Part shown: piece by piece, positions 4,591-49,241 of the stretch
How positions within the stretch are numbered: position 1 is the first letter of the stretch
How the letters are laid out: each line of letters begins with the position of its first letter
NCBI GenBank assembly: GCA_017613275.1
Contig: JAGAED010000017.1
Location: forward strand, 69,300-133,299
DNA from: Clostridia bacterium
GTDB lineage: Bacteria; Bacillota; Clostridia; TANB77; CAG-508
Length of the DNA stretch: 64,000 bases
Direction: 5' to 3'
Notes under the pieces: model-generated
The model's input: only the letters and a program-made list of their open reading frames with translations
What the model was told of the DNA's origin: nothing
The model's database searches: none
Made by a program: the position numbers and the translations under genes

Positions 4591-4630
4591 TCAACCTTGC
4601 TTTTTGGGACACCCCAAAAAACAAGGTTGA
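4591..4630 (+). terminator. Intrinsic terminator built from the GGGACAC-apex palindromic element
   Basis: tcaaccttgcttttt-gggacacccc-aaaaaacaaggttga. Confidence 0.7.
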
Positions 4631-7300: not shown

Positions 7301-7420
7301 AAAGAAAATTATATATTTTGTAGCGAAATTGTGGGGACAGTTCAAATTTTCTCGAAAGTTCAAAGAACTTTCGTAAGAAAATTTAGAATGGGGATAGCGT
7401 AAAAATATATAATTTTCTTT
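7301..7420. repeat. Long imperfect palindrome with a 19-bp perfect AT-rich outer stem
   Basis: aaagaaaattatatatttt ... aaaatatataattttcttt. Inner stem caaattttctcgaaagttc/gaactttcgtaagaaaattt. A same-strand GGGGA box sits in each arm (gtggggacag, aatggggatag). Confidence 0.7.
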
Positions 7421-12375: not shown

Positions 12376-12408
12376 CCATGTTTTTTGGGGTACCCCCAAA
12401 AAACATGG
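12376..12408 (+). terminator. Palindromic terminator, variant of the GGGACAC element
   Basis: ccatgtttttt-ggggtaccccc-aaaaaacatgg. Confidence 0.65.
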
Positions 12409-13566: not shown

Positions 13567-13604
13567 AAACCTGGTTTTCTGGGACACTCCAAAAAACCAG
13601 GTTT
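13567..13604 (+). terminator. GGGACAC-apex palindromic terminator
   Basis: aaacctggttttct-gggacactcc-aaaaaaccaggttt. An inverted copy of the core (ggagtgtcccc) lies at 13627-13637. Confidence 0.7.
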
Positions 13605-13727
13605 TTGTTTTGAAGCAAACTTTCTTGGAGTGTCCCCTAAAATCTCCTTATAGATGTAAAAAAGAACATAAATTTGTGAAAAATATTGAAATTATTATGC
13701 CAATATGATATAAATAAAAATAAATAG

Positions 13728-18092: not shown

Positions 18093-18262
18093 ATAAATAG
18101 ATAAGAACATGTGAAAAATATAGAGCCAAGAAGAATTTGCGTGGTTAAATTTTTACGGTTAAATCTGATGAAAAAATAAAGAGGAGGAACAAAAGAAAAT
18201 GGAGAAAAACGAAACACAAAACAAGCGGAATAACGCTTATTGTTTTAGTAATCACAATTATA

Positions 18263-30835: not shown

Positions 30836-30873
30836 AGACTTTTGGGGTTCAGTACACACTGCCCCAAAAGTCT
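30836..30873. terminator. Bidirectional hairpin terminator (relative of the GGGACAC element)
   Basis: agacttttgggg-ttcagtacacactg-ccccaaaagtct, between convergent genes. Confidence 0.65.
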
Positions 30874-36032: not shown

Positions 36033-37079
36033 TTAATCCGCTGGTAAATTATCTTTTGAAATAACTATAACTGGGCGAATTTTGCTGCATAAAGTTTCAT
36101 CGTTGTACCATGAATACAAAATGTTGCTAGACTGATATATATAATATACTTCGTCGTCAAAGAAATCATCTACATCAGCAGGTCCAAGATAATAGCCATA
36201 GGAAACACTTTCACTTACACCAAAAATACTGTTATAATCTGAAGTAACTTCTCCCATATCAATTGTTCCTCCCAAATTGTAAATGTCACTAAGTAACAAT
36301 AATCTTCCTGTTGCTCCTGTTACATTTAATGTGCTTACATATGCATTTATAATATCTTCAACATCACTTTCATTATATATATTTACGATATCAGAACTTA
36401 ATTCCATCCCAGTACTTTCATCTTCACTTTGTACTAAATCAGTATATGAATCGTCAGATTTTGTATAGCTTAAGCAATATTTAGCAAATAACTTTAATGT
36501 TGGATTATTCGCATCACTATCTGCTATTACATAAAAATCCTGATTTGATATTCTTACTGTGTCTCCTACGCTATATGCTGTATACGTTGTTCCTCCACCT
36601 GGAGGTGTGCCAGTATTTTCAGTTAATGCTTCCCAAGTTAATGTTCCACTTGTTATTGCAATAGTTCCTTCTTGTTTGTAATCTCTAGTAGTTATTGTTA
36701 CTTTTGCGTCTTGACCTGTTGCTGATTGTGATATAACCATTGTTGCATCTCCAATTTGTTTTGCTGTTTCGTATTGTGCTAATGCTGCTGTTATTACTCT
36801 TTGTCCGACTTCTGTTGCTGAATCTGTTAATTTTACAGTCTTGTTACCTTTTACATAAATGTCATCATAAGCTTCTGTTTGAGCATTCTGTACTAATACT
36901 GCAAGTTGATCTTTTGCTGAACCTATGTCATTTTTTTGTTTTGCCTCATTGGCTTTTGCTGGTGCACTATCACTTCCGGTTAATGCACTTATTGTGATTC
37001 CTGCCAAAATCAATAACACGATAATTGTTATTACTAAGGCGATAAGCGTAATTCCGCTTGTTTTGTTTAATTTGTTCAT
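36033..37079 (-). CDS. Prepilin-like surface protein, paralog c (intact reading frame)
   Basis: MNKLNKTSG|[49 protein letters not shown].. A unique C-terminal half ends in IRPVIVISK. Confidence 0.75.
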   Translation of the reverse strand: MNKLNKTSGITLIALVITIIVLLILAGITISALTGSDSAPAKANEAKQKNDIGSAKDQLAVLVQNAQTEAYDDIYVKGNKTVKLTDSATEVGQRVITAALAQYETAKQIGDATMVISQSATGQDAKVTITTRDYKQEGTIAITSGTLTWEALTENTGTPPGGGTTYTAYSVGDTVRISNQDFYVIADSDANNPTLKLFAKYCLSYTKSDDSYTDLVQSEDESTGMELSSDIVNIYNESDVEDIINAYVSTLNVTGATGRLLLLSDIYNLGGTIDMGEVTSDYNSIFGVSESVSYGYYLGPADVDDFFDDEVYYIYQSSNILYSWYNDETLCSKIRPVIVISKDNLPAD

Positions 37080-37786: not shown

Positions 37787-37865
37787 ATGAGAAATTTTTA
37801 TATAGAATATAAAGATAATGAATTTCTGCAATCATTGGTTGCAGAAATTAGTTGGACTAAAATAA
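37787..37865 (+). pseudogene. Remnant of a DUF1016/YhcG-type PDDEXK nuclease gene
   Basis: FYIEYKDNEFLQSLVAEISWTK matches the conserved YhcG N-terminal block. The homology stops where a GGGACAC palindrome begins. Confidence 0.5.
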
Positions 37866-37890
37866 ACTTTTTGGGACACTTTCAAAAAGT
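37866..37890 (+). repeat. GGGACAC-apex palindromic element inside a gene remnant
   Basis: acttttt-gggacactttc-aaaaagt. Confidence 0.6.
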
Positions 37891-38112
37891 AACGATAAAA
37901 TTAAAATGGAAAATTATGTTAAACATATTTACAGCTGGCACAAAATGTGATATAAGTAGAGTAATCTATTTAGTACATTTCGTGTTGATTTTTTATAGTA
38001 TTTAGTCAAATATTTAATTCAAAATTAATCCCAATTAATAAAAAATATAAGAAGGAGGTTTTTAAAATATTTACTGCGGTTTTCAAACATAGTAAAATAT
38101 ATAAGAAAAGAT

Positions 38113-49159: not shown

Positions 49160-49202
49160 CAAAAACAAAAAGAGAATTTGCAAAAGCAAATTCTCTTTTT
49201 TT

Positions 49203-49241
49203 AAACCTTGTTTTTTGGGACACTCCGCAAAAACAAGGTTT
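49203..49241 (+). terminator. GGGACAC-apex palindromic terminator
   Basis: aaaccttgtttttt-gggacactccg-caaaaacaaggttt, almost the same element as 4591-4630. Confidence 0.7.

Follow-up and report, generated by a model that had tools for sequence, protein, structure and literature searches.

GGGACAC hairpin repeats of a Clostridia genome: probable REP-type mobile elements whose candidate transposase gene is found in relatives

Introduction

Why does the same asymmetric word, GGGACAC, stand at the apex of hairpins behind many unrelated genes of one Clostridia genome? The question was raised by a 64,000-nt stretch of DNA (hereafter, the window), for which an earlier note had listed seven copies of a palindromic element with this core. 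Two origins had been suggested for it: a REP- or MITE-like mini-element co-opted as a terminator, or a hairpin recognized by a specific protein or by DNA-uptake machinery. The window covers C16:69300-133299 of the source genome (G000), which comprises 1.155 Mb in 17 contigs at about 30% GC. The explanation that we consider very probable is that the copies are non-autonomous hairpin repeats of the REP/REPIN type, moved by a Y1 HUH transposase of the RAYT/TIRYT type, orphaned in this genome, and landing at terminators.

Abundance and Anatomy of the Repeat

In the window, the seven exact cores (4606, 13581, 13630 on the minus strand, 25692, 26229, 37873, and 49217) were all found where they had been reported. 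Their number is to be compared with 1.55 expected, and none of 100 dinucleotide shuffles reached seven. The enrichment extends to the whole genome, which contains 126 GGGACAC words vs. 48 expected from a fifth-order Markov estimate, and 82 matches to the longer pattern TTTKGGGACACYYY, for which the reversed control gave none. A repeat context of about 36 nt, conserved between positions -12 and +23 relative to the core, is common to 104 of the 126 cores; the remaining 22 resemble background, and 12 of them are intragenic. In addition, a profile built from the 104 copies identified about 20 further copies with mutated cores, such as GGGACAT, GGGGCAC, GGGATAC, or TGGACAC. This family is the most abundant repeat of the source genome, and the top non-trivial 16-mers, with at most 39 occurrences, all come from it. 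The 104 repeat-context copies comprise 94 distinct 34-mers and thus show no sign of present-day activity: they form an old, diversified population, not a fresh burst. An Rfam scan of the window returned tRNA as the sole match.

Each unit measures about 33-40 nt and consists of variable outer arms, a T-run, (G)GGGACAC, YYC, and an A-run; the consensus of the 104 copies is ACTTTTTGGGACACTCCCAAAAAG plus the outer arms. The inner hairpin is TTTTTGGGA-CAC-TYYCAAAAA, with the asymmetric GGGACAC tag at its apex. The outer arms covary, since ACCTTG is paired with CAAGGT 12 times and ACCTGG with CCAGGT seven times, while the mixed combination occurs once. The architecture had been described as always the same, a statement that was too strong: three main arm types were found, together with hybrids and doublets. 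The arm types are as follows:

Type A: AAACC(T/G)TG-T-run-GGGACAC-TCCCC-A-run-CA(A/C)GGTTT
Type B: (CA)GTTAAC-T-run-GGGACAC-TTTC-A-run-GTTAAC
Type C left arm: AGAC-T-run, paired with its own complement or with an A-type or B-type right arm

Combinations of left and right arms are BB in 34 copies, AA in 23, CA in 13, and CB in eight. Units also occur as inverted doublets, of which 11 are convergent (10 of B type) and one is divergent; these form near-perfect hairpins of 70-80 nt, with folding energies of -25 to -56 kcal/mol. Cores are spaced 27-48 nt apart in the 12 doublets and 35-48 nt apart in the convergent ones. Such pairs of opposed units have the REPIN architecture.

The family members of the window, and the hairpins that have to be told apart from them, are:

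4591..4630, plus strand: A-type unit (TCAACCTTGCTTTTTGGGACACCCCAAAAAACAAGGTTGA), 11 nt past the stop codon of an amino-acid kinase gene, without T-run
12376..12408, plus strand: family member with CATG-type arms, whose mutated core (GGGGTACCCCC) is fully palindromic; terminator-like, with T-run
13567..13604, plus strand: A-type unit with the CCTGG/CCAGG arm variant, followed by TTTTTGTTTT; terminator-like
13620..13645, minus strand: degenerate partial unit, inverted (GGGGACACTCCAAGAAAG on the minus strand), which failed the repeat-context filter
25676..25720, plus strand: classical A-run/stem/T-run terminator with apex CTGGGGACACTTCCCAG; family likeness limited to the core
26219..26249, plus strand: C-type unit (TAGACTTTTTGGGACACTCCCTAAAAGTCTA), which begins with the stop codon of a CBS-domain gene; without T-run
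26267..26304, plus strand: separate classical terminator, outside the repeat, directly downstream of the 26219 unit
30836..30873, no strand: hairpin with C-type arms (AGACTTTTGGGG / CCCCAAAAGTCT) and a different apex, in a spacer between convergent genes; possible diverged relative
37864..37892, plus strand: C/B-type unit (AAACTTTTTGGGACACTTTCAAAAAGTAA), about 150 nt past the upstream stop codon, without T-run; identical in strain contigs
49167..49202, plus strand: classical terminator of a PBP gene, outside the repeat, immediately 5' of the 49203 unit
49203..49241, plus strand: A-type unit, inserted straight after the T-run of the PBP terminator

The near-identity noted for the copies at 4591, 13567, and 49203 reflects membership of one subfamily, AAACC(T/G)G-T-run-GGGACAC-YCC-A-run-C(A/C)AGGTTT. 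Likewise, 12376 had rightly been called a close variant, as its core is mutated and CATG arms matching its own are found at C14:33820 and C15:13668. Other assignments need revision. An inverted core is indeed present at 13627-13637, but it belongs to a merely degenerate partial unit. What had been taken for a copy at 25687-25707 forms the apex of a longer terminator hairpin and is no full unit; strains differ in its core, which may be GGGAAAC (L017, L022) or AGGGACAC. As for the hairpin at 30836, its arms are of C type, but its membership is uncertain because the apex differs and it went unflagged by the nhmmer family profile. Strain contigs retrieved by exact protein look-up are near-identical to the window, and they revealed no presence/absence polymorphism for 26221, 37866, or 49203; wherever a strain contig spans the spacer 3' of the CBS gene, the unit at 26219 is present.

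A core had also been seen in the palindrome at 7301-7420, which turned out to be a repeat of about 110 nt from another family. This separate dispersed family has some seven to eight copies genome-wide at 82-89% identity (C16:10938, C16:28675, C14:53377, C1:106178, C11:63477, C10:7731, and a partial one on C13), and the window copy holds GGGGACAG and GGGGATAG in direct orientation. A further small hairpin, (A/G)ATAAGCG(T)TA(A/T)TTCCGCTTGTT followed by TTGT, occurs at 18220-18241, 20422-20443, and 37041-37062 of the window; two hairpins of this (A/G)ATAAGCG type lie just upstream of pilin-like genes at 18263 and 20465.

Patchy Distribution Among Relatives

The pattern TTTKGGGACACYYY, with its 82 matches in the source genome, is nearly confined to it among close relatives: 23 of 24 congeneric species have 0-3 matches and one, G022, has 10. 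The closest sampled congener, G024 (CtsR 84% identical), has no match, nor do the other genera of the first sample. Among 301 genomes of the family, 259 lack the pattern, G295, from another genus, has 44 matches, and all others have at most seven. When a strict 21-nt pattern was searched with one genome per species, the matches came mainly from metagenome-assembled genomes of ruminant-gut Clostridia (CAMPBS01, JAFRNM01, JAFRFO01, JAFYBZ01). About 10 single matches fell in other phyla, near the chance estimate of about four or more in 596 Gb, so they were not counted as cross-phylum spread. Only three viral contigs carried the strict pattern.

This distribution bears on the proposal that the core serves in DNA uptake or binds a host protein, and that selection, not transposition, maintains it. 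The core is strongly conserved and oriented, as such a signal would be, and in Neisseria, pairs of uptake sequences form hairpins that occur in terminators. A signal of this kind, however, fits poorly with a motif that is missing from 259 of the 301 family genomes and near-absent (0-3 copies) in congeners. It fits no better with a density of about one per 10 kb, with a population of copies of which some 85% are intergenic, or with a conserved part that is no short word but a 36-nt sequence with covarying arms. Maintenance by selection as an uptake or binding signal is therefore highly improbable, and the uptake part of the earlier suggestion is not supported.

Gain and Loss at Orthologous Sites

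Two relatives, G041 (CAMPBS01) and G042 (JAFRNM01), have loci that align to the source genome at about 80-89% nucleotide identity. In the 738 kb of G041 examined, 36 repeat-context copies were found. Copies with mappable flanks were compared in both directions:

42 copies of the source genome vs. G041: 22 sites empty, 11 with a copy in the same orientation, five in the opposite orientation, four with a variant core
22 copies of G041 vs. the source genome: eight sites empty, nine with a copy in the same orientation, four in the opposite orientation, one with a variant core

Presence and absence at orthologous sites, which had been proposed as a check, is thus common in both directions. Four sites display clean insertions without target duplication:

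Source genome C16:12940: 34-nt C/A unit, between GCAACAC and TTGTA
G041 C5:40916: 39 nt
G041 C1:34733: 46 nt
G042 L069:3264: 38 nt, with a stop codon on one side and a terminator on the other

The first of these indicates that the C/A "hybrid" moves as a unit, because it was inserted as one 34-nt block. Other changes add to existing units, in tandem at G041 C9:33024 or adjoining a unit at C14:33820 of the source genome. In several spacers, the two genomes carry different subfamilies or opposite orientations (C16:58714, C16:137704, C2:77322, C10:3440, and C5:47560). Within the window, the spacer that holds the 4591 unit has a classical terminator only in G041 and a classical terminator in G024, and a palindromic cluster of four cores in G042. 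The 49203 unit is absent from the orthologous site in G041 (L063, where the upstream terminator is kept), in G024, and in G021. Together with the patchy distribution, these alignments mark the GGGACAC copies as mobile DNA and not as convergent terminators.

The absence of target-site duplication also discriminates between kinds of mobile element. The term MITE had been used for these repeats, and their short, palindromic, and dispersed units would suit a miniature inverted-repeat transposable element mobilized by a DDE-type insertion sequence. However, a MITE in the DDE sense is unsupported because the four clean filled/empty site pairs lack target-site duplications. Moreover, no DDE insertion sequence was seen beside the units at the loci examined (an incidental observation, not a dedicated search), and the gene that units frame in relatives (see below) encodes a Y1 HUH enzyme. 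Mobilization by a DDE enzyme is accordingly very unlikely. The other half of the label, REP-like, is supported: the units are dispersed, are present in one genome and absent in another at orthologous sites, insert with no target duplication, and are linked to a RAYT-like gene in relatives.

Placement Relative to Genes and Replication

On a crude ORF-based gene map, in which 87-89% of the sequence is coding, 88 of the 104 copies (about 85%) are clearly intergenic: 64 lie in tandem spacers, 17 in convergent ones, and seven in divergent ones. Relative to the spacers available, copies occupy 17 of 102 convergent vs. seven of 100 divergent spacers. Most copies lie 7-40 nt past a stop codon. For the A type, a stop codon of the same sense is found 11-58 nt upstream of the core in 19 of the 20 intergenic copies, which bears out the association with stop codons expected from the window.

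The strand that carries GGGACAC, the G-rich one, is the leading-strand sequence, and also the lagging-strand template, in 76 copies vs. 28. Transcription-linked and replication-linked orientation biases are inseparable here because 83-90% of the genes are co-oriented with replication, and the informative single copies (n = 7) are split 5:2.

Two units of the source genome, outside the window, lie inside a gene. At C5:47560 and C5:49295, they are in frame within an ORF of 2803 aa (C5:42783-51194, L192), which has GH94 and glucoamylase-like domains and resembles a cyclic beta-1,2-glucan synthase; the peptides that they encode are QTLFLGSVPKNKD and ETWFSGTLPKNQV. The G041 orthologue, 86.5% identical, has different in-frame units at both places, one of them in the opposite orientation. 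In annotation, such hairpins should not automatically be counted as terminators, given that two are translated in this giant glucan-synthase-like gene.

Relation to Transcription Terminators

The copies had been described as acting as terminators after many unrelated genes. Because flanking A-runs pair with T-runs, U-tract scoring from minimum-free-energy folds was unreliable, and a simple terminator rule was used instead to scan the first 40 kb of the window (the 49203 unit lies beyond the scanned stretches). The rule accepted 12376, 13567, and 25687; it rejected 4591, 26221, and 37866, which have no T-run. The units at 26221 and 49203 adjoin separate classical terminators (26267-26304 and 49167-49202, respectively). 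Together, these adjoining terminators and the copies without T-run indicate that the units are not, as a rule, the sole terminators of their genes.

Nevertheless, units and terminators share places. At C1:103778, C11:87258, C16:22609, C11:83309, C2:142026/142069, C5:42750, and the 4591 site of the window, a relative has an ordinary A-run/stem/T-run hairpin where the source genome has the element, and at some of these replacement sites the outer stem is common to both genomes. Elsewhere, the unit stands directly past the T-run of a terminator, as at C2:13773, C2:15862, C16:12940, G041 C2:96177, and 49203 in the window. It may be that terminator hairpins and their immediate surroundings are preferred, or best tolerated, as landing places. 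Some units would then have taken over termination, although the direction of change is read at each site without an outgroup. Co-option as terminators is thus favored by at least six sites where a relative has a classical terminator. It is opposed by the lack of a T-run in 4591, 26221, and 37866, by the separate terminators beside 26221 and 49203, and by the two copies translated in frame. As only some copies have a T-run, any terminator function is predicted to be partial.

Could the hairpins simply be ordinary intrinsic terminators that never moved and that reached a favored stem and loop sequence by convergence? Their position just past stop codons, with T-runs in some cases, is what such convergence would produce. 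Against this stand the closest sampled congeners, which have terminators at the same places and no copies, and the many copies that lack a T-run or lie beside a true terminator. Some copies, in addition, precede genes or are in frame inside one, and whole units of 34-46 nt are present or absent as blocks. Block insertions and a patchy distribution already refute the convergence of ordinary terminators, which of all the explanations weighed here has the least to recommend it.

A Y1 Transposase Gene Framed by the Units in Relatives

If the repeats are of REP type, a tyrosine transposase should be sought, as had been recommended. In the source genome, whose assembly is 95% complete, PF01797 (Y1_Tnp) had no match, and tblastn with 20 RAYT-like proteins from relatives gave no match better than E 0.06 and no remnant. 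The contig ends contained no repeat and no transposase fragment. The link to an enzyme therefore rests on relatives, in which the search was successful: there, the gene is framed by GGGAC(A/G)(C/G) units.

Y1 genes were found in 26 of 41 relatives and are of two kinds, one IS200-like of about 160 aa and the other of 250-300 aa. The long kind is represented by about 21 loci. Most of these have GGGAC(A/G)(C/G) close to the gene, and about two-thirds have it on both sides, inward-facing and within longer inverted repeats. The flanking repeats vary between loci, and in close relatives they are of the source genome's own types. HUH and Y---NP motifs can be read from the translations of the long proteins, for example NNHAHF and YIHENP in L110. 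Among NCBIfam models, they match the REP-associated tyrosine transposase (NF047646) best, with 60-77 bits, below the equivalog cut-off of 80; the IS200 model scores only 18-23 bits on the same proteins. They possess a C-terminal extension of about 110 aa, in which Pfam recognized a weak HTH_23 (E 0.022) in one clade and had no match in the clade linked to the units of the source genome. A phmmer search of the RAYT-like protein against PDB sequences found no match.

Individual loci tie the gene to specific subfamilies. In G041, it is framed by the B units AACTTTTGGGGACACTTTCAAAAAGTAA and TTAACTTTTTGGGACACTTTCAAAAGG, of the same type as those of the source genome, and it is frameshifted. In G042, an intact gene of 253 aa and an AbrB/PIN-like pair lie between ACTTTTTGGGACACTCTTAAAA units, at a locus that differs from that of G041; the source genome has a solo C/A unit beside the site syntenic to this cassette. 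A-like hairpins frame the gene in G046/G295 (44 copies) and in G048. In G069 and G335, which have few pattern matches, one match lies about 200 nt upstream of the gene.

The frameshifted gene of G041 (L112:1450-2222) has a single frameshift near 1695, which divides it into frames of 82 and 168 aa; no CGG codon is involved, and the gene is either a pseudogene or the product of an assembly error. In the G042 cassette (L110:380-2300), the AbrB/SpoVT-like and PIN-like genes have, by eye from their translation, a toxin-antitoxin-like look.

The region of the source genome that is syntenic to the G041 cassette, C11:113182-115700, contains no transposase gene. It has units at 115620 (plus strand), 115655 (minus strand), and 115686 (minus strand), the last of which is orthologous to the right-hand unit of the G041 cassette. 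At the place of that cassette, a duplicated terminator region (gttaag-aaaaaaatctcaaataaccattgagattttttttt-atttagtgtagaatat, at C11:113260-113330 and 115690-115760) brackets a 2.4-kb segment that consists of gene fragments for leucine-rich-repeat surface proteins. The last 60 nt or so of C11 are GC-rich and signal-peptide-like (ctggccctggcgctctgcctcggctgcgctgcc), atypical for a genome of 30% GC, and may be chimeric.

A different route of spread deserves consideration, namely that the repeats are mobile but were multiplied by recombination or gene conversion between hairpins, by replication slippage at palindromes, or by an unrecognized enzyme, and that the units beside Y1 genes are extra insertions at a favored site. 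Such a route would account for the source genome, which has the most copies yet no Y1 gene, and for G044, which has about 10 copies and no Y1 match. Repeated hits in the same spacers, which suggest hot spots, and terminator apexes that seem replaced and not merely interrupted are also in its favor. On the other hand, inward-facing pairs frame the gene in about two-thirds of the 21 or so loci, many of them in genomes that otherwise have 0-4 copies; the gene-flanking units co-vary with the dispersed units of each genome; and whole units were cleanly inserted at sites previously free of the element. On balance, spread by one of these other routes is improbable.

It is therefore the transposase-based explanation that we retain. 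A tyrosine transposase of the RAYT/TIRYT type (Y1 HUH) would move, or would have moved, the units in trans as single-stranded DNA, after recognizing the hairpin together with its GGGACAC tag. The gene missing from the source genome would have been lost or left unassembled, and with it missing, the approximately 120 copies are probably orphans. New copies land without target duplication a short way past stop codons, where they lie within an intrinsic terminator hairpin, beside one, or in its place, and with the GGGACAC strand mostly on the sense strand, which is also the lagging-strand template. A copy that replaced a terminator and kept its T-run would most likely terminate transcription, and elsewhere the unit would be a passenger. 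Catalysis by the RAYT-like enzyme, the single-stranded intermediate, and the terminator activity are the parts of this scheme that we infer from sequence.

Comparison with Known Systems

Two groups of elements described in the literature come close. TIRYT genes are framed by inverted repeats that share GGGGWSAS, and some of these repeats constitute moderately abundant families (Di Nocera et al., 2013, PMC3733652). The likeness is considerable: the long Y1 gene of the relatives (250-300 aa, with HUH and Y---NP motifs) is also framed by inverted repeats, GGGGAC(A/G)(C/G) and GGGGACAC both fit GGGGWSAS, and the GGGACAC repeats are dispersed too, as singles, dimers, and clusters. They differ from TIRtrons in their high copy number for the size of the genome (about 120 in 1.15 Mb), in the location of the tag in the loop of a self-complementary unit, and in their host, a low-GC gut Clostridia lineage that has the repeats without the gene.

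In the classification of Quentin et al. (2018, PMC6006769), the probable counterpart of TIRtrons is TnpA-Y1 subclass 2.1, the second-largest Y1 subclass; these authors equate it with TIRYT and reported no REP-like sequences near its genes. In contrast, the long Y1 genes of the relatives studied here are framed by units. For Clostridia, Bertels et al. (2017, PMC5581495) report Group 1 RAYTs whose flanking 16-mers recur only about 12 times. A more specific and tentative proposal, which we regard as possible though rather doubtful, is that hairpins with a GGGGACAC apex are the dispersed REP-type partners of TIRYT/TnpA-Y1 subclass 2.1, with a tag in the loop, homing to intrinsic-terminator hairpins and replacing them, and now a fossil population that partly serves as terminators. 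If this were true, the recognition tag would lie in the loop of the hairpin instead of at its foot, and the units would outlast their enzyme as fossils, part of them serving as gene terminators. REP-type repeats with domesticated tyrosine transposases are known mainly from Proteobacteria, and long TIRYT-like enzymes are common in other phyla without an established dispersed partner. The lineage studied here offers a compact genome dominated by such repeats, close relatives that keep the gene framed by the same units, and many filled/empty site pairs that reveal where units land, and thereby opens to direct testing both the recognition of a tag at the apex and the suspected bias toward terminator hairpins.

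The second group is that of the REP/REPIN-RAYT systems found in Enterobacteria and Pseudomonas (Bertels and Rainey, 2011, PMC3116915; Bertels et al., 2017, PMC5581495). Like them, the GGGACAC units are short extragenic palindromes downstream of genes, form inverted doublets that fold into long hairpins, insert without target duplication, and have a patchy taxonomic distribution. The Y1 gene is usually low-copy and flanked by its own repeats, as it is in the relatives G041, G042, G046/G295, and G048. The differences are that no GTAG/CGTC foot tag is conserved in the flanks, the GGGACAC tag being at the apex; that the cognate gene is absent from the source genome; and that the protein of the relatives scores a little short of the 80 bits that NCBIfam sets as its RAYT cut-off.

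Insertion inside genes is a feature of Rickettsia palindromic elements and of intragenic REPs. The two GGGACAC copies tolerated in frame in a large gene recall both of these, from which the family differs in that only two in-gene cases are confirmed and the great majority of its copies are intergenic. Both kinds of element are mentioned by Di Nocera et al. (2013, PMC3733652).

Three traits of the GGGACAC repeats are unusual: the tag stands at the apex, their density is high, and the genome with the most copies lacks the gene. In other respects, they are an undescribed family of an ordinary kind of element, REP-like in behavior and TIRtron-like in their tag.
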